From sequence record PZ445436.1: DNA of 64,000 bases, one strand, 5' to 3'. Position 1 is the stretch's first letter. Each line of letters opens with the position of its first letter. The notes beneath the pieces are model-generated. The model had not been told where the DNA came from. It made no database searches and was given only the letters and a program-made list of their open reading frames with translations. Shown in pieces: positions 1 through 64,000 of the stretch. The DNA is from a phage. The position numbers and the translations under genes were made by a program.

Positions 1-365
1 TCTGAGAAGGCACCAGGAAAAAGAGCATTCAAATTAAATTGACGATTCAACAGAGCGTCAATAGAATCACCCAATGCTGTAACAGCTACAAAATTATAAT
101 CTTCTTTTAATTTGTTAATTACACACAGGGCATCTTTATATGGAGACAAGTAACGAATAAAATCTGAACGATTGTATTTTTCAATTAGCTTAACGCCAAG
201 CTCTTCATCGCAATTAAATAGTTTACCTGGAGAGATAAATTTCTCATCTTGGATCATTTTTAAAATATGTTCCAACGGAAGATTATATTTCTGAGCAAAA
301 TAAGGAAGACCTGATTGCCAGCTTAAACATACTCCATCAATATCAGTTAAAATAGTAGGCTTCAT
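1..365 (-). CDS. HAD-like hydrolase-like protein, N-terminal ~121 aa only (gene runs past window start)
   Basis: ATG at 363-365 overlaps stop of the next ORF (ATGA); open frame to position 1; N-terminus MKPTILTDIDGV resembles the HAD DxDx(T/V) motif; absent from ORF track because truncated. Confidence 0.4.
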   Translation of the reverse strand, partial: MKPTILTDIDGVCLSWQSGLPYFAQKYNLPLEHILKMIQDEKFISPGKLFNCDEELGVKLIEKYNRSDFIRYLSPYKDALCVINKLKEDYNFVAVTALGDSIDALLNRQFNLNALFPGAFS

Positions 366-826
366 AGAGAGTCTCTTAATAGGTTTAACACATCAATAAA
401 TTCAGCTTCGGTTAGTATTGTATCATCTTTTGTTAGACCACTAGCCATGCTGTGCTTCAAAACTTTTCCTTTCGAGGCTTGTAATGCATCACGAAAGCCC
501 TTGTTTTGGATCGCTGCTTCAAAATATGCATTTGTGTATAATTCTTTCCACGCCGGGGAGTATCTTGAAAACGGAACTCCAATCCAGAAGAGGGTCCCAC
601 GGTCCTGAGCTCTGGCATAAGACCTTCCAGCTTGTTGGGCGGCAAGCCCGGATAACCCAAATATACGACGTTGTTGTTCAACATTTTTCACCTTACACCC
701 TTGGAGGAATCCTTCAAGACCTCCAAATTGAATACCATCCATAACGAAAGGCCATTGGGCGAAATTACTTAATGCACATGATGGCCACCTAAAATTGCTT
801 CTAATCTCTAACTCAGACATTTTCAA
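362..826 (-). CDS. NADAR/YbiA-like (DUF1768) protein
   Basis: 154 aa; segments LSNFAQWPFVMDGIQFGGLEGFLQGCK and YFEAAIQNKGFRDALQASKGKVLKH align by eye with E. coli YbiA (FSNFAAWPIKVDGKTWPTSEHYFQAQK; KFEQHAELRALLLATAPAKLVEH). Confidence 0.6.
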   Translation of the reverse strand: MKMSELEIRSNFRWPSCALSNFAQWPFVMDGIQFGGLEGFLQGCKVKNVEQQRRIFGLSGLAAQQAGRSYARAQDRGTLFWIGVPFSRYSPAWKELYTNAYFEAAIQNKGFRDALQASKGKVLKHSMASGLTKDDTILTEAEFIDVLNLLRDSL

Positions 827-17561: not shown

Positions 17562-17942
17562 TTAGGCCTTAAAAGTTTTTCGCAAAAGTTCAATGATTTC
17601 ATCTACATTGTTTTCGTCAACAATGCAGTGAATTTTTGTTACGCCAGAAACCTTGTCTTTGACTTCATCTTCTTCAGAAGTCGGTTCTTTATACTCACGA
17701 AAACAATGAAATTCATCTTCGCAAATTTCTAAAAGTCTATCTTTGAGGTAAAAATGCTTTCCATTTGCGCATTCAATGTGTTTTACTGCTTTATATCCAT
17801 TAGCGACGGAAACTTCTTTAACTTCAAACCATCCGCCATTATCTCGAATAGCTTTAACGATTGATGAATTAGAACGTGGGCTATAATTAATAAATGTATC
17901 AATAAGTCTTGGAACAAGTTCATACTTTTTGCCAATATACAT
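17562..17942 (-). CDS. hypothetical protein
   Basis: 126-aa ORF; GAGGAAA SD; hairpin upstream. Confidence 0.5.
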   Translation of the reverse strand: MYIGKKYELVPRLIDTFINYSPRSNSSIVKAIRDNGGWFEVKEVSVANGYKAVKHIECANGKHFYLKDRLLEICEDEFHCFREYKEPTSEEDEVKDKVSGVTKIHCIVDENNVDEIIELLRKTFKA

Positions 17943-54693: not shown

Positions 54694-55035
54694 TCAATCG
54701 CAAGATGTAGATGAACAACTAGAATCACAAGAACTTCCACATGAATCGCCCGTCCATACATGAACAGGAACATTGGTGTCATATGAATCAGAACTAGACT
54801 GTGTATTCTGTGCATTAGATGATGTAGTAGGTACTGACCAGCGCCAAGGATTTTTATAATATTCTTGGGCTTCTTCATAAGTCATAGTAACTGCTTCTAC
54901 TGTTCCATCTCCCATATAAACATATTCAACTACAGTTAAAGGAAGATAGTCATTTGAAATAGGAACTACACCTTCTCCCGGAGTTGTAGAGAAAAAATCT
55001 GTAAAGAAATTTTTAAACAAATTAAAGATAAACAT
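54694..55035 (-). CDS. hypothetical protein with Cys/Ser-rich C-terminal tail
   Basis: 113 aa ending [18 protein letters not shown]. Confidence 0.5.
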
Positions 55036-55241
55036 TACAAAAAGCCTCTTTTGAATTCGACTTGCTTCTCACCATAATCATATCGAATCTCTGCGTTAAA
55101 TTCAACAGAACCATCTGCGTACATCATAAATGAATGCACAACAACTTCTGTAGACCATGGTTGCAATTCATATTTCTTCATTACATGCCGTGAAATGATA
55201 ATATCTAAATCTTCATTTGGTTTAATCCAACGATTTAACAT
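55035..55241 (-). CDS. hypothetical protein
   Basis: 68 aa; GAGGAG SD; early promoter upstream. Confidence 0.5.
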   Translation of the reverse strand: MLNRWIKPNEDLDIIISRHVMKKYELQPWSTEVVVHSFMMYADGSVEFNAEIRYDYGEKQVEFKRGFL

Positions 55242-55267
55242 AGTGCTCTCCTCTATAAGATAATTCT

Positions 55268-55297
55268 ATTATACCATACTCATTTTGATATGTAAAC
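55268..55297 (-). promoter_or_regulatory. T4 early-type promoter
   Basis: GTTTAC, 18 nt, TGGTATAAT. Confidence 0.65.
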
Positions 55298-55300
55298 TGC

Positions 55301-55335
55301 AAAAACGAAAAAAGGAACCCCGAAGGATTCCTTAA
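55301..55335 (-). terminator. rho-independent terminator after soc
   Basis: GGAAUCC-UUCG-GGGUUCC then UUUUUUCGUUUUUG. Confidence 0.7.
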
Positions 55336-55338
55336 ATT

Positions 55339-55596
55339 TTAACCACCAATACCTGGAGTTGGCGTAACAGTCCAAAGACCTTCATTAGCAGTGATCCATT
55401 CAGTACGCTGATTTTCTTCATATACTGTAGAATATGCTGCTTTTTCAGAAGGGAATGTCTGATAATGAGCACCAGAAATTTTGTGAACATCAGAATAAAG
55501 AGGGAAAGCTACAGAAATTTCTTTACCCTGAATTGTACCACCATCAACTGCTTGGTCAAATGTTTTGATATTAACATAACCGCGAGTACTAGCCAT
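55339..55596 (-). CDS. soc: small outer capsid protein Soc
   Basis: 85 aa, matches T4 Soc as recalled; late promoter and terminator. Confidence 0.9.
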   Translation of the reverse strand: MASTRGYVNIKTFDQAVDGGTIQGKEISVAFPLYSDVHKISGAHYQTFPSEKAAYSTVYEENQRTEWITANEGLWTVTPTPGIGG

Positions 55597-55612
55597 GTAA
55601 TTCTCCTTTTAT

Positions 55613-55822
55613 TTAAATTACATGATTATTTATAATAAATTCTCGCGGAACGTTAAAATACCCGATTTTAGTTAATATAACAACATCACCGTTAATAATT
55701 ACCGGAGAATAATCTTCTGGAGCATTAAATTTCCAATGGGCTCTAATATTATATCCATCAGAACCAAATGCTCGAGTAGCCGGTCTCCCGGCTTTTTGCC
55801 ACGCGTAGAAATCAAATTTCAT
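55613..55822 (-). CDS. hypothetical protein
   Basis: 69-aa ORF. Confidence 0.45.
   Translation of the reverse strand: MKFDFYAWQKAGRPATRAFGSDGYNIRAHWKFNAPEDYSPVIINGDVVILTKIGYFNVPREFIINNHVI
55627..55634 (-). promoter_or_regulatory. late promoter TATAAATA for soc
   Basis: exact match about 30 nt before soc ATG; AAGGAG SD. Confidence 0.7.
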
Positions 55823-56013
55823 TTTGAATGATCTATAATTAATTTTAAATCTTCTTCACTGACAAAAATTTCGTCAGGACCTTCTATAACTTCAACCATA
55901 CGAAGTTGATTAGTTAAGAGCTCACATACGAGCTCCTTGTTATAATCTTTAAATAGCTGGTCAATACGTTTCTTATGGGCTTTCTTAAGCTGACGCTTAT
56001 TTAAACGAGCCAT
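55819..56013 (-). CDS. hypothetical basic protein
   Basis: 64-aa ORF. Confidence 0.45.
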   Translation of the reverse strand: MARLNKRQLKKAHKKRIDQLFKDYNKELVCELLTNQLRMVEVIEGPDEIFVSEEDLKLIIDHSK

Positions 56014-56531
56014 TAATAACCTCGGTCTTGACGAGCGAAGTTTTCAGCATTTTTCAGGTAATAAAGTTTAAAGATTTCTTCAGCTGACATTCCAAGAGCA
56101 ATAAATTTATTCATGAAAAAGTGAAATTGATCAATCAGTTCAAATTTAATTTCAAGTTGATCTTCAGGAGATAAGTCTTGAATTTTCTTGGATTGCATTT
56201 CAGAATAACGTTTCTTCCAAGGTTTCCATACAGCAGAAGCTTCTTTTTCACCATTACTCATACCACCAAGAGAAGTATATAGCTCGCGAGTTTCGTCTGC
56301 AATATAATCGTCTTGGTTTCGCAACCAAGCAAGAACTTCTCCTGCAGTTTCAAGTGAATCAGGATGACGATTTGTTTCTGGTTTATCATTAGCCAAACGA
56401 ATCTGTAAATGCCGCTGCATATCAAGCATAACCTGCAGTGGGTCAATATTGTGCATAATATTCTCAGCATATGCACGATTTGCTTTATCAACACCTTCGA
56501 TCAAATGAGCACATTCATTAAAGTGAGCCAT
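56013..56531 (-). CDS. 56: dCTPase/dUTPase (gene 56)
   Basis: 172 aa from ATG 56529-56531 (MAHFNECAHLIEG...); MotA-box middle promoter upstream. Confidence 0.85.
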   Translation of the reverse strand: MAHFNECAHLIEGVDKANRAYAENIMHNIDPLQVMLDMQRHLQIRLANDKPETNRHPDSLETAGEVLAWLRNQDDYIADETRELYTSLGGMSNGEKEASAVWKPWKKRYSEMQSKKIQDLSPEDQLEIKFELIDQFHFFMNKFIALGMSAEEIFKLYYLKNAENFARQDRGY

Positions 56532-56565
56532 TATTTTTCCTTTCAATTCATGGGTTAGTAGATTA

Positions 56566-56589
56566 ATTATACAATAAATATATAAAGCA
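56566..56589 (-). promoter_or_regulatory. MotA-dependent middle promoter for gene 56
   Basis: TTGCTTTA MotA box, 11-nt spacer, TATAAT. Confidence 0.6.
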
Positions 56590-56602
56590 ATAAGGAGGAC
56601 AT

Positions 56603-56803
56603 ATGGTACAAAAATTAATGGCACTTGTTAATGCCATCAAAGGTAATAAAAAGCGTATAGCTTTTACTATTTCTGCTATGGTAGGAATTTTACTCTGGAA
56701 CTTTATTTTATCACCTGTTGCAATTGCACATGGTATTAATATTCCAGTAGTTACTCTTGATACATTCGTAGATTTAGCATTTGCTTTAGTTGGGTTAATT
56801 TAA
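56603..56803 (+). CDS. possible 66-aa two-helix membrane protein on opposite strand
   Basis: TAAGGAGG 4 nt before ATG 56603; hydrophobic segments; only plus-strand ORF in the minus-strand block that does not overlap a minus gene body. Confidence 0.35.
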   Translation: MVQKLMALVNAIKGNKKRIAFTISAMVGILLWNFILSPVAIAHGINIPVVTLDTFVDLAFALVGLI

Positions 56804-57828
56804 ATCTTGGCATATTTAGATAGCCGCATTTTAGCCATCAACCCCTGCGCAATATTATTTTTCATATATTCCATAATTTGTTCAGGGGTTGCACCTTCCT
56901 TTCTAATCATATCATTAACATCTTTTGATTTCCAGGGAGATTTATCCCAAAACATAACCCTTTCTCCTGCATCAACTAATTTAGTCATTCGCTTAATAGT
57001 GTCAGGATGACGAGGTTCATTATCTAAAACCCACACTCGTCTATCTTTAAATGGAACAACTTCTAGGTCTAATTGACCACCTGTAATAGCTATACCATTT
57101 TCAATAAAAAGTGAATCTATAGGTCCTTCTAGAACATATACATCACCATCTTTAACTCGTTCAACACCGTAAATTTTTGTTGCCTCAGGATAAGCTTTAA
57201 TGGTGATATATTTTTGAGGAGCATCTTTCTTTAATGCACGTCCTTGAAAAGACTCAGCTTTTCCATTAGCATTATAAATTGGAATAACAAGACGAGGCTC
57301 AGAAATTTCCTTTTTGTATGTTCCCGGTGCTATGCTATTAACTAATTTAGGCCATTCGGTTGTAAACCAAAGATATTTCCATTTATCCTTTGGAATACAA
57401 CGAGCTTTTACATATTTTATAATTGGATGGTCTTCCGCCAGTTTATCTAATCTAACACATGACGGAAGAGATTTAATTATTTTCTTCTCAGGTTGCTTAG
57501 GAAGTTCTTTAGGTTTTTCTACTGGACGACTTTTACCTTTTTCTTTTCTTATTTCAAAGATATACTCACGATATAAATCAGGTTCAAACTCCTTTAAATA
57601 TATTCCTATCGGTGCATGATAGTTACAGTTATAACAATGAATATTTCCTTCATTATTATCACCATAATACCATCCACGAGCTTTATTCTGGTCGGTTTTT
57701 GAATCTCCACAAACAGGGCATCTAAACCGCAATTTAAAAGTTGAACTATTATTTACTTGTGTGAATTTAGGTAAATGAGCTAATGCACGGTATGCAAACT
57801 CATTATCAATCCAAGGTATTGATGACAT
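56800..57828 (-). CDS. 61: DNA primase gp61
   Basis: 342 aa; N-terminal zinc ribbon CPVCGDS...CYNC; Toprim region. Confidence 0.9.
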   Translation of the reverse strand: MSSIPWIDNEFAYRALAHLPKFTQVNNSSTFKLRFRCPVCGDSKTDQNKARGWYYGDNNEGNIHCYNCNYHAPIGIYLKEFEPDLYREYIFEIRKEKGKSRPVEKPKELPKQPEKKIIKSLPSCVRLDKLAEDHPIIKYVKARCIPKDKWKYLWFTTEWPKLVNSIAPGTYKKEISEPRLVIPIYNANGKAESFQGRALKKDAPQKYITIKAYPEATKIYGVERVKDGDVYVLEGPIDSLFIENGIAITGGQLDLEVVPFKDRRVWVLDNEPRHPDTIKRMTKLVDAGERVMFWDKSPWKSKDVNDMIRKEGATPEQIMEYMKNNIAQGLMAKMRLSKYAKI

Positions 57829-57830
57829 TT

Positions 57831-57995
57831 TTACTCTTCTTTTTCTTTAGATTCCTCTTTTTTCTTTTTAGGAATCTGTTCAGGACCTTTATTTACTACA
57901 GCACCTGATGTTGTTCCAGTAGAGATATTTTCAGGATTACCACCTGAATCTCCAGCAACCATATCTTCTTTGATAAATTCTTTATATGTTTTCAT
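57831..57995 (-). CDS. possible 54-aa hydrophilic protein (61.1-like)
   Basis: MKTYKEFIKEDMVAGDSGGNPENIS...KKKKEESKEKEE; below track cutoff. Confidence 0.4.
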   Translation of the reverse strand: MKTYKEFIKEDMVAGDSGGNPENISTGTTSGAVVNKGPEQIPKKKKEESKEKEE

Positions 57996-57996
57996 A

Positions 57997-58623
57997 TTAA
58001 CCTCTATTCATAAAAGCATTAAAAATTTGGTCATCAATAGAAACATTTACTTTAGACTGTTTTTCTGATGGTAATTCATATCCACATATTACAATTTTGT
58101 GATCAATATCAAAATACACAGAAGCAATATGATTAATGATGTTTTCAGTAAAGTCTAAATCAACATCAATATCTTTTTGACCACAGCCCAAAGGATAAAT
58201 AATGCGAGTAATTCGATTATCTTTAACAAATATTCCACCGACATACTCTGTGCTGCGTTTAAAGTCTACACGCCGACGAAATGAAAAATATTCAGGCTCT
58301 CTATGAGCTCGGCTCATAGGACACAACGAGTAACTAGAATAAGAGATGTCAAATCCTACGCCTTCAATATGAGCCAAAGTGTCATGATTAAACCAATTAT
58401 AATCGTACGCCAAATCCATTAGATTATAATATGTAAAAGGCACCGGATTAACATCATTAGTCACAAGCATGTAATTAGCAACTGCTATAATTTCATTGTT
58501 TTTAACGAATACAAACCGTGATTGATGCGAATGACCTGGACCCGCGTTTTCACGATTAATGATATAACACTGGGCACCTTTATATTTGTATGTATCTTTG
58601 CATTTGTGCATTTGATAGAGCAT
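57997..58623 (-). CDS. hypothetical protein at the 61.2 position (possible anti-DarT factor AdfA homologue, by position only)
   Basis: 208-aa ORF between sp and 61. Confidence 0.35.
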   Translation of the reverse strand: MLYQMHKCKDTYKYKGAQCYIINRENAGPGHSHQSRFVFVKNNEIIAVANYMLVTNDVNPVPFTYYNLMDLAYDYNWFNHDTLAHIEGVGFDISYSSYSLCPMSRAHREPEYFSFRRRVDFKRSTEYVGGIFVKDNRITRIIYPLGCGQKDIDVDLDFTENIINHIASVYFDIDHKIVICGYELPSEKQSKVNVSIDDQIFNAFMNRG

Positions 58624-58916
58624 TATTCACCTACCACTTCAGCGATGATATTTTTATTATTAAAGTTTTTATCGCAATACAGAACATAATTATACTGCAT
58701 TACACCACCAGACTTAAGCTGTTTTTGCACTTCGGCTTTCATTTCAGGACGATCGCGCTCAACGATATTCATAATATCTGCTTCAATTTGGGTTTCAACT
58801 TCAGTCTGATCCGCAATCATAGACCATTCGCACAAATCTTTATCATAGCCTGCCATAGCAGGCTGAGCAGCACAAGAAGCTAAAGCAAAAATTGTAGCAA
58901 AGATAAATTTTTTCAT
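58623..58916 (-). CDS. sp: Spackle periplasmic protein
   Basis: 97 aa with cleavable signal peptide; T4 Sp length and position. Confidence 0.75.
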   Translation of the reverse strand: MKKFIFATIFALASCAAQPAMAGYDKDLCEWSMIADQTEVETQIEADIMNIVERDRPEMKAEVQKQLKSGGVMQYNYVLYCDKNFNNKNIIAEVVGE

Positions 58917-58976
58917 GATAATCTCCTCAGTAGTTTATGTTTATATAGTATCTCAATTTCCAATAAAAGTAAACAG

Positions 58977-59276
58977 TTATTTTAAAATTTTTGCATAATC
59001 ACATGTTACAAACTGTTTCTCTAGCTTGACGATTTTACGAAAGTATCTTTTGCATTGGCGAATCTGTCGCTTCGTAGGACGTACAGCAAACTTAATAAAT
59101 TCCACTCGACCAAATGGAGGGCTTTCTTCTGCTGGAATATCTAACACCAATTCCCACGTATCTGCAATAAGTGCTTTGAATTGCGTATTTTTCCTGACGT
59201 TATACGGAGTAGGTTTAAATAAAACAATATGCATATTATCCTCGGCAATCCACTTCACATACTTTCTTGTCATCAA
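58977..59276 (-). CDS. hypothetical protein (61.4-like)
   Basis: ORF; true start probably internal ATG near 59234 to avoid 41-nt overlap with dmd. Confidence 0.45.
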   Translation of the reverse strand: MMTRKYVKWIAEDNMHIVLFKPTPYNVRKNTQFKALIADTWELVLDIPAEESPPFGRVEFIKFAVRPTKRQIRQCKRYFRKIVKLEKQFVTCDYAKILK

Positions 59277-59418
59277 TGAAAGCTTTAACTAATGCTTTAT
59301 TAACTTCAGCATACTGAGTAGTAGCCCATTGAACGTCATCTTTCATCATTGTGGTTTCTTTAGTAAACATGCTTTCATTCTTAAACCACCCCATAAAAAC
59401 TACCTTTACCAATTCCAT
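59236..59418 (-). CDS. dmd: Dmd antitoxin (inhibitor of host RnlA/LsoA RNase toxins)
   Basis: 60 aa matching T4 Dmd as recalled; GAGGAG SD; early promoter. Confidence 0.85.
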   Translation of the reverse strand: MELVKVVFMGWFKNESMFTKETTMMKDDVQWATTQYAEVNKALVKAFIDDKKVCEVDCRG

Positions 59419-59447
59419 AACAATCTCCTCATTTAACCAACAAGACT

Positions 59448-59477
59448 ACTATACCATAGTCTCGTTAGCTTGTAAAC
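59448..59477 (-). promoter_or_regulatory. T4 early-type promoter for dmd
   Basis: GTTTAC, 18 nt, TGGTATAGT; -10 flanked by AGACTA/TAGTCT inverted repeat. Confidence 0.65.
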
Positions 59478-60904
59478 TAAAATTTTAATTCATTCGCCAA
59501 AGCATCTAACTGAGCTCGGGTGGATTCATTTCTTTGATAGCGATTCTGTTCAGCCTGAATCTGCTGTGAACCTGCTACTTCACTCACTTCAGTTGGAGTA
59601 GAATCTTGTTCAATTTCTACCCATTTCTGATTTCCCTTTTGAACACCCATCAAAAACTTATTCCACTTATTCTTATCGCCATATCGTGATTTAATTTGCT
59701 TAATGAGTTGTTGTTCAGCAGCTGCTAGCTCCTCGGTTTCAATGACCGCAAGCATAAAATCAGCTGTTGCTGGAAGACCAGCAGATTCTGCAATATCGCT
59801 CATGTTAACATCAGAAGAATCCCAAGCCTGTTTACCAACCTGTGCTGCAGTCCAAAGAACAGTTTCGGTTTCAACAGCTAGAGCACGCAATTCCTCTGCA
59901 ATAGCTTTAACAGTTGTGTAACTATTTTCTGAATAAACTCGGATGCGACAAGATTTACAAATACCTAGATAGTCGACAATAATGATTGTTGGAACAAAAT
60001 TCTTTTTGAGCTTCAATTCATTCAATAGAGACCTGAATGTGTTAGCATCTGCCCCACCAGTAGGATACTGTTTAACGATTAAACGGCCGAGAGTAGATTT
60101 CTCACGCCATTTTTCCATTTTTCCTTTATACTCAGCGTAAGAAATATGCCCATCATCAATGTCATCAAGAGAAACATCAAGCATATTAGCATCAATACGT
60201 TTAGCACAGACTTCTTCTGCCATTTCCATGGAAATGTAAAGAACATTATGTCCGAGCTGTAAATAATCTGCTGCCAATGAACACAATCCTAATGACTTAC
60301 CAACGTTAACGCCAGCCATTAAAACGTTCAGTGTTCCAGTCTCAGCTCCGCCTTTCGTAATTTTGTTTAGAATTCTGAGTTTAAATGGAACCTTACGAGC
60401 TTTATTCATATAAGATAGCCAACGTGCTTCGTAGTCATCCATCCAATCATGACCAACGTAACTATCAAATGAAATTGATAATGCTTGGCGCATGATGTCA
60501 GGAATAGCACCAACATCCGGCATTTTCTTATTTCGTTTTTCCGGAGGAAGTTCAGCATTAGTTTGAATTTCGATTATTTTAGACGTAGCATTAAACATCG
60601 CCCTTTGCTGAACATATTTTTCTGTTTCTTTTATTAACCAACTGTGGTCTTCCGGAGAATCAGCCAGTTTTGAAATAAGTGTTTTTACACCAGAATATTC
60701 TGTTTCAGTAAATGAACTATTTTCTAATGCAACATTTAACGCATTAATAGATGGAACGCTATGATACTCATTGACATGAGATTTAATTAATTTGAATGTA
60801 TTTTTAGCTGGACCACTTTCAAAATATTCTGAATCCATATATGGCCAAACTTTTGAAAAATAAGCTTGATCAAATATGAGATGAGAAAGAATAATTTCTA
60901 CCAC
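59477..60904 (-). CDS. 41: replicative DNA helicase gp41 (DnaB family)
   Basis: 475 aa; Walker A GVNVGKS. Confidence 0.9.
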   Translation of the reverse strand: MVEIILSHLIFDQAYFSKVWPYMDSEYFESGPAKNTFKLIKSHVNEYHSVPSINALNVALENSSFTETEYSGVKTLISKLADSPEDHSWLIKETEKYVQQRAMFNATSKIIEIQTNAELPPEKRNKKMPDVGAIPDIMRQALSISFDSYVGHDWMDDYEARWLSYMNKARKVPFKLRILNKITKGGAETGTLNVLMAGVNVGKSLGLCSLAADYLQLGHNVLYISMEMAEEVCAKRIDANMLDVSLDDIDDGHISYAEYKGKMEKWREKSTLGRLIVKQYPTGGADANTFRSLLNELKLKKNFVPTIIIVDYLGICKSCRIRVYSENSYTTVKAIAEELRALAVETETVLWTAAQVGKQAWDSSDVNMSDIAESAGLPATADFMLAVIETEELAAAEQQLIKQIKSRYGDKNKWNKFLMGVQKGNQKWVEIEQDSTPTEVSEVAGSQQIQAEQNRYQRNESTRAQLDALANELKF

Positions 60905-60913
60905 ACTTACTCC

Positions 60914-61276
60914 TTAAAAGAATTTAAATTTTTTCTTTGACCTTTTATTAAATGCATCTTGCAGTTGCATTGTAATACATTTTTCTACATGAGGAGCTAA
61001 CTCAGCTTTTCTTTCTTGGTCAAGAACAGCAAAGTCCATTACAACCTTTCCATCAACCCAATCCAGTTTAGTTACATACACTATATGCGTAGAACCATCT
61101 TCTAGTTTAATGACAATCTCCTGGATAACATTTTCCATAGCAGATTTAATTATCTTAAGAGACTCATTAAAAAGACGTTCTTTTCTTTCTTCTTCCCCCT
61201 CCGAAGAGGGGGATTCATCGATAATTTCCAGATCTAAATCTAAATCATCTTTATTCATTAAATTCTTCCATATCAC
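60914..61276 (-). CDS. gp40-like head vertex assembly protein
   Basis: 120-aa acidic ORF between uvsX and 41. Confidence 0.55.
   Translation of the reverse strand: MIWKNLMNKDDLDLDLEIIDESPSSEGEEERKERLFNESLKIIKSAMENVIQEIVIKLEDGSTHIVYVTKLDWVDGKVVMDFAVLDQERKAELAPHVEKCITMQLQDAFNKRSKKKFKFF
61194..61213 (-). other. intragenic CUUCGG hairpin inside the gp40-like ORF
   Basis: CCCCCUC-UUCG-GAGGGGG, encoding SPSSEGEE. Confidence 0.5.
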
Positions 61277-62432
61277 TTAACTGTTCGAGGTCAGTTTCTA
61301 AATCAGCAGCTGATTTACTTTTACTTTCTGGAGATTTAAATTTTTCAACCTTTGAGTTAATCAATTCATCAACTTCAGCTTCAACAATTTCATTGCTATC
61401 AATAGCACCTAACTGATAAGCACGTTTAATAGCATCTCGGAATGGTTGATGCTTAAATAAAGGACCCCAGAATGTAGTGCAGTTGGTATCTTTTGCACGC
61501 CAAGATTTTTCTTCGCGAATCATCTCACCGGTTTCTTCATCAAGAAATTCACGGGCATACCAGCCATTTTTAGGTTTTACTACAAATCCTAATTCTAGAG
61601 CCATATCTAACAATCCAGAATAAGGATCGATACCACCGTCAAATTTAACATCAATAAAGAATTTACTTTTTTCTTTAACGGTACGAGATTTTTCTACATT
61701 TAGAACAAATTGATACCCCTGAAGATCAGAACCATCTTTAATCTGGCGTTTACCGATAATGAATACGGTATCAGCCGAATACATTACGCCTGTACCACCT
61801 GTCATCACGGTTTTACTAAACATTTCAATTGTTTCAATTGTATGGTTAACCGCAACGCACGGAATATTTTTAATGCTAAAATAAGGAGTAACAATACGGA
61901 ATAATGACTTCAGTGATTTAGCACGAGTCATATCTGCCACAGATTTTTCATTCAAGGCATCTTCCGTTTCTTTCTTAGAAGCCATATTACCGATTGAGTC
62001 GATGAATACAATAACCTTTTCACCACGCTCAATAGCTTCAAGCTGGTTCACCATATCAATTTTCAGCTGTTCAACTGACTGGATTGGCGTATGAATTACT
62101 CGTTCCGGGTCAACTCCCATGGATCGCAAATAAGCTGGAGTAATACCAAATTCGCTATCATAGAATAGACAAACCGCGTCAGGATATTTGTTCAAATATG
62201 CCGCAACCATAGTCAAAGACATATTTGATTTAAAGTGTTTAGAAGGCCCTGCGAAAATAGTTAAACCAGACTGCATACCGCCATCAATCGCACCAGAAAT
62301 AGCAATATTAAGCATTGGGATTTTTGTACGGATTACATCCTTTTCATTAAAGAATTTAGATGTAGTCAGTTCAGCAGTCATTTTAGAAGTGGAAGCTTTA
62401 ATCAAACGGGATTTTAAATCTGCAATAGACAT
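61251..62432 (-). CDS. uvsX: UvsX recombinase (RecA/Rad51 family)
   Basis: 393 aa; Walker A GPSKHFKS; acidic C-terminus. Confidence 0.9.
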   Translation of the reverse strand: MSIADLKSRLIKASTSKMTAELTTSKFFNEKDVIRTKIPMLNIAISGAIDGGMQSGLTIFAGPSKHFKSNMSLTMVAAYLNKYPDAVCLFYDSEFGITPAYLRSMGVDPERVIHTPIQSVEQLKIDMVNQLEAIERGEKVIVFIDSIGNMASKKETEDALNEKSVADMTRAKSLKSLFRIVTPYFSIKNIPCVAVNHTIETIEMFSKTVMTGGTGVMYSADTVFIIGKRQIKDGSDLQGYQFVLNVEKSRTVKEKSKFFIDVKFDGGIDPYSGLLDMALELGFVVKPKNGWYAREFLDEETGEMIREEKSWRAKDTNCTTFWGPLFKHQPFRDAIKRAYQLGAIDSNEIVEAEVDELINSKVEKFKSPESKSKSAADLETDLEQLSDMEEFNE

Positions 62433-62509
62433 TCATTTTTTCCATAGGCATCATTATATTTTCCTCACTGGTTAAAGATAGAGTAATTATAACACAATAA
62501 ATTTAGGCA

Positions 62510-63358
62510 TTAATCAACTGCTATTGGATGAATAGCATTAAACTTATGAAATGCTTCTGATTTTTCTTTACGCGAAACACACATGCGAAGAACCTTTAGT
62601 GGTTCGTCTTCTTCACCCAACGATTTTCGTTTTTCAATATTAGAAGTTTTCCAACGAGCTTGCTCTGGAAACTCTCTATTGATTTGCTCAAGCGCTCTAT
62701 TATGTTTAGAATTACTACGAATTGAGCTGCACCCGCCAGGAGCTTGTGCTTTTCCAGATACAACCAGATATTTGAACAAGGCCAAATGCGGATAACCTTG
62801 ATTAATTAAATTGAGAAATGCATACATATCTTCGCATAAATCAATTTTTCCATACCCAATTTGTTCTGTCGTAAGTTTTCCGAGGTCATACCATGTATTC
62901 GTGAATCCGTATGAATTTTCACGATAATTACCCCAAGATGAAGTAATTTTAAAAATAGGTAGACGAGCATGGCCATGATAATACCCGCAATCCATGGCAT
63001 CTTCAACGTATTGAATCAATTCATAGAACTGTTCACGAGTTAATTGATTAACTTTATCTACGCAGCGACGATCATCTCTCTTTCGCATTGAACTCATACG
63101 AATAGTAGTATCATCGTCAATCATCCAGATTCGTTGACCTGCATACATATCAGTAATTGCTTTACGAGTACCGGCAATTCCGTTTACATCATCAGGAATA
63201 GTTATAATTTTAGCTCTAGACCCATAAGCATCATAATAAGCTTTTTCTTCGTGTTCACGCACTACAATATGCGGTTCATAATCAGTCGGAAACATATCAA
63301 GGGCAGAAACTGCCCCGACACGTTGATAACTTGGAATTACGAATTGAATCATTTCCAC
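62510..63358 (-). CDS. putative GT-A glycosyltransferase (candidate HMC-DNA glucosyltransferase)
   Basis: 282 aa between uvsX and 42 where T4 has beta-gt; DxD-type motif RIWMIDDDTTI; does not resemble T4 beta-gt as recalled. Confidence 0.45.
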   Translation of the reverse strand: MEMIQFVIPSYQRVGAVSALDMFPTDYEPHIVVREHEEKAYYDAYGSRAKIITIPDDVNGIAGTRKAITDMYAGQRIWMIDDDTTIRMSSMRKRDDRRCVDKVNQLTREQFYELIQYVEDAMDCGYYHGHARLPIFKITSSWGNYRENSYGFTNTWYDLGKLTTEQIGYGKIDLCEDMYAFLNLINQGYPHLALFKYLVVSGKAQAPGGCSSIRSNSKHNRALEQINREFPEQARWKTSNIEKRKSLGEEDEPLKVLRMCVSRKEKSEAFHKFNAIHPIAVD

Positions 63359-64000
63359 TCACCTTTATAGTCTTTTTTCACAATATGAGTTTCGCCAGTA
63401 TTCCACCAATGATCAACCAAATAAAAATGACGAGAATATACATGAAGACTTCCAACATTCCATATAATAGAACCTGCTTTATACTGACGAGTTGAATCGC
63501 CTGCATTCAAATCAGATACTAATTTATCTAATACGTATTTTTGCCATGCATAATCATTACGGAATCCGAAGACCACGTCATTTGAGCGCATGTTAACAAC
63601 TGCATTAATTTTCTTGTCACGAATCAGATACTGTACGGTATTCGTACACATGAAATCTGACATGCCATCTTTATTGTAGTCAAACTGCATAGATGGACGA
63701 GTATAAATCATGATACCACGTCGAGAATCAGGATTTTGACCAAGTTCAGCTAAACACATATCATACTGGGCATAGTTATCTTCTGACCAAATAGCCCAGC
63801 CATAATTCGAGTTAATTTCGCCTTTAGAAGATGCTACCTGCTGCCAAATCTTTGGTGTTTCACCCGGAATATCTTTAACGAACAAACTCTTAGATTTATA
63901 CCATTCAAGTTCACGCTGAATGTATTCATCATTAAGAGCGCCAAAAATAAACGGTTCATCTGCTACAAATGATGCGCCAATAATTTCAATAGTTTTAACG
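63349..64000 (-). CDS. 42: dCMP hydroxymethylase gp42, C-terminal ~217 aa (start lies beyond window end)
   Basis: Frame stays open to window end (YKSKSLFVKDIPGE...); track ORF starts at a TTG, an artefact. Confidence 0.9.
   Translation of the reverse strand, partial: VKTIEIIGASFVADEPFIFGALNDEYIQRELEWYKSKSLFVKDIPGETPKIWQQVASSKGEINSNYGWAIWSEDNYAQYDMCLAELGQNPDSRRGIMIYTRPSMQFDYNKDGMSDFMCTNTVQYLIRDKKINAVVNMRSNDVVFGFRNDYAWQKYVLDKLVSDLNAGDSTRQYKAGSIIWNVGSLHVYSRHFYLVDHWWNTGETHIVKKDYKGEWK

Follow-up and report, generated by a model that had tools for sequence, protein, structure and literature searches.

Do the small genes packed between the replication genes 41 and 61 of the phage recorded under PZ445436.1 form an anti-defence island and, if so, against which systems would they act? 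In the window, i.e., the whole 64,000-nucleotide stretch of DNA that was analysed, five tightly packed minus-strand genes at 57831-59418 are flanked upstream by the gene of the replicative helicase (gene 41, 59477-60904) and downstream by that of the primase (gene 61, 56800-57828), both also on the minus strand. The 41-61 region has been proposed as an "anti-TA island" (Srikant et al., 2022, PMC9391042). With a probability of about 0.9, the present stretch would be the orthologue of this T4 island in another Tequatrovirus; the island finding as such is already known, since it has been published for T4.

Gene content and transcription of the block

The five genes are colinear with 61.1, 61.2, sp, 61.4, and dmd of T4, and the 1588-nt block aligns with T4 NC_000866 18966-20553 at 96.7% nucleotide identity with zero indels. 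The order and lengths of the genes, their junctions and the promoter all equal those of the T4 arrangement 61.1-adfA-sp-tifA-dmd, with 96-99% identity at the protein level (61.1, 52/54; AdfA, 201/208; Sp, 95/97; TifA, 84/85; Dmd, 59/60), and only point substitutions separate the two versions, most of them in AdfA (7/208). The flanking proteins are identical to T4 gp41 and gp61 at 473/475 and 340/342 positions, respectively. Pfam and PHROG profiles match four of the five ORFs with E-values from 1e-20 to 1e-136, and 492 phage records span at least 80% of a 4.1-kb query reaching from gene 61 to gene 41 (window 56800-60904), which is far beyond chance. Gene identity, order, integrity, allele state and promoter motif are thereby established. 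The surroundings deviate from those of T4: dam is missing between genes 56 and 61, as are segF and segA elsewhere, and a different glucosyltransferase follows downstream of uvsX.

The junctions are very short: tifA starts 1 nt past the dmd stop, the stop of sp and the start codon of adfA share bases (ATAATG), and 61.1 begins 1 nt past the adfA stop to end 2 nt short of the gene 61 start. Such overlapping or 1-2-nt junctions are consistent with co-transcription and coupled translation. Antisense ORFs within the island, e.g., that of 97 residues on the plus strand at 58590-58883, are regarded as spurious, the minus-strand genes being T4 orthologues throughout, and an Rfam scan of 55000-62000 gave no match at E-values up to 1.

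Upstream of dmd-tifA lies an early-type sigma-70 promoter matching the consensus (59476-59448, minus strand), with TTTACA and TATAGT hexamers separated by a 17-nt spacer and a TG preceding the -10 hexamer. With 10 of 12 consensus matches it is the best promoter-like site within 56500-61000, and T4 has the same two hexamers at the equivalent place, in agreement with the early promoter from which dmd-61.4 is expressed in T4 (Srikant et al., 2022, PMC9391042). These authors also mention a further T4 promoter downstream of tifA (PMC9391042). The 60-nt spacer between tifA and sp (58917-58976, minus strand), which carries the GAGGAG ribosome-binding site of sp and has a single base different from T4, yields at best a 9/12 site in the consensus scan (58943-58915). 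The T4 late promoter TATAAATA does not occur in 55635-64000, island included, and its total over the whole window is not above chance expectation.

The product of dmd (61.5; 59236-59418, minus strand; 60 residues) matches Pfam PF17587 (E 1.8e-45) and the PDB entry 5hy3_B "Antitoxin Dmd" (E 9.6e-37). Dmd is a protein antitoxin against the host RNase toxins RnlA and LsoA (PMC9391042; PMC5308261), which the present protein would likewise bind. The adjoining gene, which the earlier note had described as a 61.4-like ORF, can be named more closely as tifA (58977-59234, minus strand; 85 residues), co-operonic with dmd, directly downstream of it behind the early promoter. Its product matches the Pfam family DUF7279 (PF23945; E 1.8e-20, 73 bits, cut-off 24.5) and phrog_2375 (E 3.7e-38), and found no match among PDB sequences at E-values up to 1. 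The mechanically called longer ORF from a TTG at 59276 is rejected, the start equivalent to that of T4 being the ATG at 59234. T4 gp61.4 has been renamed TifA as it neutralises ToxN, the endoribonuclease of the type III system toxIN (PMC9391042), and TifA of this phage would bind ToxN in the same way. Wild-type T4 TifA nevertheless fails against plasmid-borne toxIN unless its gene is amplified, and not all TifA homologues inhibit ToxN equally well (PMC9391042). The product of sp (spackle, 61.3; 58623-58916, minus strand; 97 residues) matches Pfam PF25676 (E 1.4e-43) and PDB 6x6o_A "Protein spackle" (E 5e-61), and carries an N-terminal signal peptide, the mature chain in PDB 7cn6_A covering residues 23-97. 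Spackle works in the periplasm, where it inhibits the tail lysozyme gp5 of superinfecting T-even phages (PMC7677548), so that the protein encoded here is expected to be exported to the periplasm and to block the gp5 lysozyme of T-even phages arriving later. For all these proteins the biochemical activities are those predicted by orthology, at 97-99% identity to the tested T4 proteins.

AdfA, AdfN and the toxin DarT1

The earlier note had raised the possibility that the 208-residue ORF (adfA; 57997-58623, minus strand) is an AdfA homologue at the position of 61.2. This is borne out: residues 1-208 match positions 1-211 of the Pfam profile AdfA (PF23813; E 4.3e-136, 451.5 bits against a curated cut-off of 27), and the gene lies between sp and 61.1/61, i.e., at the place of T4 61.2, adjoining sp as RB69 gp61.2 also does. 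Pairwise alignment, the check which the note had proposed, gives 97% identity with T4 gp61.2 (201/208) and about 66-70% with RB69 AdfA (143/216). RB69 AdfA belongs to the same PF23813 family; the two proteins differ in the N-terminal 55 residues and by 5 residues in the length of a C-terminal linker, the shorter one being that of the window protein. No PDB sequence was matched by AdfA at E-values up to 1.

His165 of the window AdfA (motif NIINHIAS) aligns with R164 of RB69 (NNINRIAS) and is thus shared with the RB69 escape variant R164H; a His is found at the equivalent position in 14 of 16 AdfA cluster representatives. In a published two-hybrid assay DarT1 was bound by the R164H variant, and the equivalent of RB69 position 164 is His in ten T-even AdfA homologues (PMC11257639). 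The window AdfA is therefore of the DarT1-binding allele type, binding itself being predicted by orthology: it would bind the DNA ADP-ribosyltransferase DarT1, and its His would be the residue that confers this binding in RB69. It differs from T4 AdfA at seven positions (P62, Y66, T82, A84, R108, C147, and S190), of which the first four carry the RB69 residue, and these differences could shift the activity either way.

The gene adfN (30.3; 362-820, minus strand) encodes an intact protein of 152 residues ending in LNLLRDSL, without the frameshift truncation of the RB69 type, which matches Pfam PF08010 Phage_30_3 (E 4.3e-70) and possesses the catalytic residues E36 and K43; the adfN primers published for T4 match both ends of the gene exactly. 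AdfN (gp30.3) is a DNA ADP-ribosylglycohydrolase of the NADAR family, which acts on DNA and not by binding the toxin (PMC11257639). The suggestion that two candidate DarT-countering genes are present, one of them the NADAR-like gene at the start of the window, is accordingly upheld, and judged by homology the phage carries both published anti-DarT1 factors, AdfA and AdfN, as T4 does. Such a pairing has been published for T4 and most Tevenvirinae (Johannesman et al., 2024, PMC11257639). As with T4, the likeness lies in an intact NADAR-type orphan antitoxin and an equal two-layer anti-DarT1 arrangement, in which AdfN may back up AdfA as an enzyme that takes ADP-ribose off the phage DNA. Unlike the island genes, adfN lies outside the island, 57 kb apart in window coordinates, and its product is enzymatic on DNA.

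Whether AdfA is the working factor in this pair is an evenly balanced matter, for there is roughly an even chance that AdfN alone suffices against DarT1 and that AdfA serves against another DarT homologue or is redundant. The T4 protein, to which the window AdfA is 97% identical, speaks for such a division, since T4 deleted for adfA shows no phenotype on DarTG1, whether or not adfN is present, and the authors of that work suspect residues outside position 164 of weakening T4 AdfA against that particular DarT1 (PMC11257639). However, in the same paper T4 AdfA given in trans rescues the growth of RB69 on DarTG1 cells, and the window protein carries the His allele required for DarT1 binding, with four of its seven changes from T4 going to the residue of RB69, whose AdfA with the His change is the variant that binds DarT1.

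A capsid-related side lead in gp61.1

The 54-residue product of 61.1 (57831-57995, minus strand) matches phrog_1823 (E 7e-34) and no Pfam model. Even in distant T4-like phages the gene immediately precedes that of the primase, and with this wide conservation and constant place it can be ruled out as variable island cargo; it is a member of the same transcription unit and probably not an anti-defence gene. As a separate observation, gp61.1 begins with MKTYKEFIKE, which is like a capsid targeting sequence (CTS), continues with a core similar to the N-terminal arm of gp23, and ends in a Lys/Glu tail. Its leader agrees with the CTS of IPII/IPIII, MKTYQEFIAE, at 8 of 10 positions, Y4, F7, I8, and E10 included, and functional mapping has assigned targeting to residues 4 and 7 and processing to residues 8 and 10 of the CTS. 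The four mapped residues are thus common to gp61.1 and to the leader MKT(Y/F)xEF(I)xE of T4 IPI, IPII, and IPIII. When the window is translated in all six frames, the CTS-like motif turns up a single time, with 0.015 occurrences expected by chance, and in about 83 kb of T4 sequence it is found only in ipI, ipII, ipIII, and 61.1. Compared with the T4 internal proteins, which bear a CTS, are processed by gp21 and are injected, gp61.1 has only 54 residues, is encoded in a replication gene cluster and not at an ip locus, and has a body homologous to gp23 residues 66-93, its packaging being hypothetical.

Residues 2-38 of gp61.1 align ungapped with gp23 residues 57-93, across the prohead-protease site E65|A66, with E-values of 1e-8 (T4) and 6e-11 (phage 133). 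Profile searches gave 1.7e-7 and 2.6e-10 among the 2092 segments of a restricted six-frame database, and the gp23 similarity was found at E 3e-4 in a tblastn search of 2.3 Gb of phage sequence. Searched against 1.84 billion proteins, the gp61.1 profile returned 51 representatives, either short (50-70 residues) or of mid-length (about 80-250 residues), and no protein of gp23 length at E 1e-3, so that the gp23 similarity is significant only pairwise, in the phage tblastn search and in the six-frame database. The similar segment falls outside the Pfam family Gp23 because that model starts at gp23 residue 88. By implication of the alignment, a single recognition motif, aromatic-x-x-Phe-(Ile/Leu)-x-Glu, may be common to the CTS of the internal proteins and the terminal part of the gp23 propeptide. 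Literature searches on gp61.1, the CTS and the internal proteins found nothing on a resemblance of gp61.1 to either CTS or gp23.

It can be tentatively hypothesized that gp61.1 is a head-related peptide, namely a free-standing junction of gp23 propeptide and N-terminal arm, targeted by its CTS to the prohead core and cut by gp21 after Glu10. The leader match, the rarity of the motif, the ungapped gp23 alignment and its profile support point to this, as does a hydrophobic-x-Glu motif ahead of (D/E/A)MVAGD in most of the homologues read, with a few varying. On the other hand, 61.1 lies with the primase gene in the early/middle operon adfA-61.1-61, in an island devoid of the late promoter, and its invariant place beside the primase gene could instead indicate a role in replication. 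Moreover, long-form homologues hold the module C-terminally and not behind an N-terminal leader, gp23 stays below significance in the largest of the protein searches, and the supplementary files of a T4 virion mass-spectrometry study, in the portion available, do not mention 61.1, although this absence is inconclusive. More specifically, and less probably still, gp61.1 might be a fourth capsid-targeted peptide of T4-type phages, descended from the segment of gene 23 that encodes gp23 57-93 and provided with an IP-like leader. The predicted gp21 cut after Glu10 would then create an N-terminus at Asp11, detectable as the semi-tryptic peptide DMVAGDSGGNPENISTGTTSGAVVNK, and leave a conserved 44-residue mimic of the N-terminal arm ("N-fist" region) of mature gp23*, which might either fill gp23-arm sites within the head or accompany the DNA on injection. 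If true, this would be a new packaged component in the best-studied phage head, would tie the CTS, a tool of T4 protein-delivery engineering, to the propeptide of the major capsid protein itself, and would matter more than the island finding.

An island of inhibitors or a slot with changing content

The earlier note had located dmd, the 61.4-like ORF, sp, and the ORFs of 208 and 54 residues in this stretch, and all five are present there, on the minus strand. Its description as an anti-defence and exclusion island holds for Dmd, TifA, and AdfA as anti-toxin proteins and for Spackle as an exclusion protein, and fails for 61.1, which is a conserved gene and not variable cargo. The term "anti-defence island" therefore fits only three of the five genes. 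The preferred reading is that of small early genes on the same strand, each product of which would act alone as a stoichiometric protein inhibitor. In this, the block resembles anti-CRISPR and anti-restriction islands, where small, early and independent inhibitor genes also vary in content among related phages. Unlike in those islands, no aca-like marker regulator is seen here, the targets are toxins of toxin-antitoxin systems, and the cluster includes an exclusion gene and the conserved gene 61.1.

Alternatively, the cluster may be a hyperplastic slot between replication genes in which unrelated accessory genes turn over, the co-location of the anti-toxin genes then being mechanistically meaningless, an explanation that is possible and held to be somewhat doubtful. 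The content of the slot does vary: in close relatives, e.g., CrRp10, an additional ORF of 118 residues stands between 61.1 and adfA, RB69 also bears imm, imm.1 and four other ORFs, in Aeromonas phage 31.2 nothing but 61.1 lies between 41 and 61, Klebsiella and Acinetobacter phages hold other cargo, and T2 naturally lacks adfA (PMC11257639). Spackle and Imm, furthermore, are exclusion and not anti-toxin proteins. Yet mere turnover has to account for three independent anti-TA proteins inside 1.4 kb, two of them in one operon, and for the parallel to anti-CRISPR and anti-RM islands drawn by Srikant et al. (PMC9391042). The slot and the functional island are in any case largely compatible views.

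Taken as an anti-TA island, the block makes this phage one more T4-like phage with the standard T4 kit of Dmd, TifA, AdfA, AdfN, and Spackle, which adds little new. Such a kit may aid the prediction of host range on strains with RnlAB/LsoAB, ToxIN, or DarTG1, and the phage provides a slightly different natural AdfA allele for comparison with those of T4 and RB69.

Gene order and identities between genes 41 and 61

The window is a segment of a T4-like (Tequatrovirus) genome, and 56800-60904 matched 572 phage records by megablast, with a best match at 95-99% identity in 480 of them (the highest being 98.1%). Between gene 41 (helicase; 59477-60904, minus strand) and gene 61 (primase; 56800-57828, minus strand), five genes are found on the same strand, namely dmd (59236-59418, 60 aa), tifA or 61.4 (58977-59234, 85 aa), sp (58623-58916, 97 aa), adfA or 61.2 (57997-58623, 208 aa) and 61.1 (57831-57995, 54 aa). 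The earlier note had placed five ORFs here, and every coordinate is borne out by the ORF list and by colinearity with T4. For tifA, the T4-equivalent ATG at 59234 is preferred to the TTG at 59276, overlapping dmd, at which the mechanical ORF list begins. All five genes recur in the T4 reference record, where neither their lengths nor their spacing differ; the 1588-nt block is 96.7% identical to T4, colinear at every position and free of indels, and protein identities amount to 52/54 (61.1), 201/208 (61.2), 95/97 (sp), 84/85 (61.4) and 59/60 (dmd). Genes overlap or are separated by 1-2 nt, with the exception of the gene 41/dmd (58 nt) and tifA/sp (60 nt) gaps. Just 5' of dmd, TTTACA-17-TATAGT with an upstream TG (59476-59448) is the top sigma-70-type match within the 4.5-kb neighbourhood, and both hexamers are unchanged in T4. 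An Rfam scan of 55000-62000 returned no match. On the minus strand, 56615-56640 holds an 11-bp hairpin followed by a T-run, the sole terminator-like hairpin within 56500-61000; it sits about 160 nt beyond the stop codon of gene 61, where it could close the 41-61 transcription unit.

Full-length Pfam matches far over the curated cut-offs identify Dmd (PF17587, E 1.8e-45), Spackle (T4_Spackle PF25676, E 1.4e-43), the 85-aa ORF (DUF7279 PF23945, E 1.8e-20) and the 208-aa ORF (AdfA PF23813, E 4.3e-136); PHROGs assignments agree for all four, and solved structures were matched for Spackle (6x6o, 7cn6) and Dmd (5hy3_B). The 85-aa ORF had been called 61.4-like, an identity that holds but was left without its name: T4 gene 61.4 was renamed tifA once it was found to encode a protein that inhibits ToxN, an endoribonuclease (PMC9391042). 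Spackle acts in superinfection exclusion, by blocking the gp5 tail spike at its lysozyme domain (PMC7677548).

AdfA and AdfN, two DarT-countering genes

The 208-aa ORF, raised in the earlier note as a possible AdfA homologue, is indeed one: far from lacking similarity, it shares 97% of its residues with T4 gp61.2 and, depending on the alignment, about 66-70% with AdfA of RB69. In RB69 AdfA, position 164 is Arg; the protein gains DarT1 binding through the escape change R164H, and ten T-even homologues naturally have His (PMC11257639). Window AdfA has His165 in this column (motif NIINHIAS), as do 14 of 16 cluster representatives drawn from 5.8 billion proteins, the others having Asn (one) or Arg (one, the RB69-like cluster only). 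The family is narrow, every representative being at least about 70% identical, and its 486 phage records (tblastn) are all T-even types of Escherichia, Shigella, Yersinia, Salmonella and Citrobacter. Window AdfA differs from that of T4 at seven sites (P62, Y66, T82, A84, R108, C147, S190 in the window), the first four being RB69 residues. T4-type AdfA, it has been suggested, may be adapted to a different DarT homologue (PMC11257639), and the same caveat holds for the window allele.

The second gene is adfN or 30.3 (362-820, minus strand; 152 aa; PF08010, E 4.3e-70), whose first 30 nt and last 28 nt agree exactly with the T4 adfN primers given in PMC11257639. While the RB69 copy is frameshifted, window AdfN is full length. 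It retains E36 and K43, here taken to be catalytic; both were mutated to alanine in AdfN (E36A, K43A), from which T-even resistance to DarTG1 comes (PMC11257639). The phage carries both AdfA (PF23813) and an intact AdfN (PF08010), as the earlier note had anticipated, an arrangement already published (PMC11257639) and not new.

A plastic slot and its surroundings

What the 41-61 slot carries differs from relative to relative. In many of the close ones the query is matched in two pieces, over a stretch about 358 bp longer than the query itself. In Citrobacter phage CrRp10, the sole one of these inspected, an extra 118-aa ORF lies between 61.1 and adfA (1498-1854 of sequence L003); matching PF23813 positions 113-211 (E 2.3e-8) and phrog_4122, it is a paralogue of the AdfA C-terminal half, which includes the DarT1-binding determinant. 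The other relatives with the longer match probably carry it too; it is absent from T4 and from the window, where the equivalent site is a 1-nt junction at 57996. The RB69 slot holds imm and imm.1 together with four other ORFs, a Klebsiella Karamvirus and an Acinetobacter Lazarusvirus have different cargo, and in Aeromonas phage 31.2 the slot is reduced to 41-61.1-61. Given this variation, it is a plastic region loaded with inhibitor and exclusion genes. The T4 region with dmd, tifA and adfA was already proposed to be one that "may be an anti-TA island" (PMC9391042). As applied to the anti-defence and exclusion island of the earlier note, this label is fair for those three genes but not for 61.1, nor for sp, since sp is an exclusion gene.

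The surroundings also depart from T4. T4 has dam between genes 56 and 61, whereas window 56532-56800 lacks it, and T4 Dam as a tblastn query found no match anywhere in the window; the dam site is occupied by a 66-aa ORF (56603-56803, plus strand; phrog_2024), which T4 also has, though unannotated, at 17738-17935 (97% amino-acid identity). The T4 gene segF is missing from 55613-56531, a mosaic patch adjoining oriA, with two small ORFs of 69 aa (DUF7422) and 64 aa between soc and gene 56; the gene 56 protein (dCTPase) shares only about 70% of its residues with that of T4, while the flanks are 95-96% identical in nucleotides. In place of T4 segA and beta-glucosyltransferase, 62433-63366 has one 282-aa ORF (62510-63358, minus strand) with a weak match to TET-associated glycosyltransferase (PF20691, E 1e-9), possibly a second glucosyltransferase of the T2/T6 type. 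How DNA is modified could be relevant to AdfN, for which a preference for modified T-even DNA has been suggested.

gp61.1 and the N-terminus of gp23

gp61.1 behaves unlike the other four genes. It was found by tblastn in 1396 phage records, against 486 for AdfA, and its hosts extend to Klebsiella, Acinetobacter, Aeromonas, Enterobacter and Erwinia phages; in every distant phage inspected, Aeromonas and Acinetobacter T4-like phages among them, it is the gene immediately 5' of the primase gene. Its N-terminus, MKTYKEFIKE, shares 8/10 residues with the capsid targeting sequence (CTS) MKTYQEFIAE of T4 IPII/IPIII, including residues 4 and 7, mapped for targeting, and 8 and 10, mapped for processing (PMC9026906). 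Translated in six frames, the window contains a single instance of MK[TS][YF]x[ED][FV] (0.015 expected by chance); in the T4 sequence examined (about 83 kb), the pattern is confined to ipI, ipII, ipIII and 61.1.

Residues 2-38 also align without gaps to T4 gp23 57-93 (43% identity, pairwise E 1e-8; E 6e-11 with gp23 of Acinetobacter phage 133), a stretch crossing the prohead protease (gp21) site Glu65|Ala66 and the first 28 residues of gp23*, with CTS positions 4, 7, 8 and 10 falling on F59, F62, L63 and E65. A profile built from 16 gp61.1 homologues was run over 2092 segments of six-frame translation, taken from the window, from about 83 kb of T4 and from a single phage 133 locus; the two gp23 proteins ranked top after the gp61.1 copies (2.6e-10, 1.7e-7), followed by IPII and IPIII, not significant. 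The core (D/E/A)MVAGD(S/A)GG...I..GT..GA..NKGP is near-invariant among the homologues read, directly preceded by hydrophobic-x-Glu in most, short or long, a few varying at one position. In long forms (120-250 aa) the module is C-terminal, behind a domain corresponding to RB69ORF032c; T4 and the window retain the module alone. In RB69 (2318-2784 of sequence L002) the long-form gene appears to be split: the N-terminal third of phrog_2086 is matched by RB69ORF032c, the C-terminal module by a 92-aa gp61.1.

Residues 66-105 of gp23* are flexible and, in the unexpanded head, probably touch the scaffolding core; after expansion they form the N-arm and "N-fist", part of the Soc binding site (PMC9546572). 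It is conceivable, if on balance doubtful, that gp61.1 mimics the gp23 N-terminus and is targeted to the capsid and processed by gp21. Against a role in the head, the gene lies within an early/middle operon with no late promoter TATAAATA found nearby, gp23 was not recovered at E 1e-3 among 1.84 billion proteins, and the supplementary files of one T4 virion mass-spectrometry study, in the portion available, do not mention 61.1. Some homologues bear the automatic database name "major capsid domain-containing protein". The likeness to gp23 or the CTS was undiscussed in the literature searched, which includes only part of the older T4 literature, so that an earlier mention is possible.

Overall, the finding of the earlier note is real and its interpretation correct, and the island is the standard T4 gene set, already characterised and known, in a further Tequatrovirus; gp61.1 is its sole element possibly worth more study.
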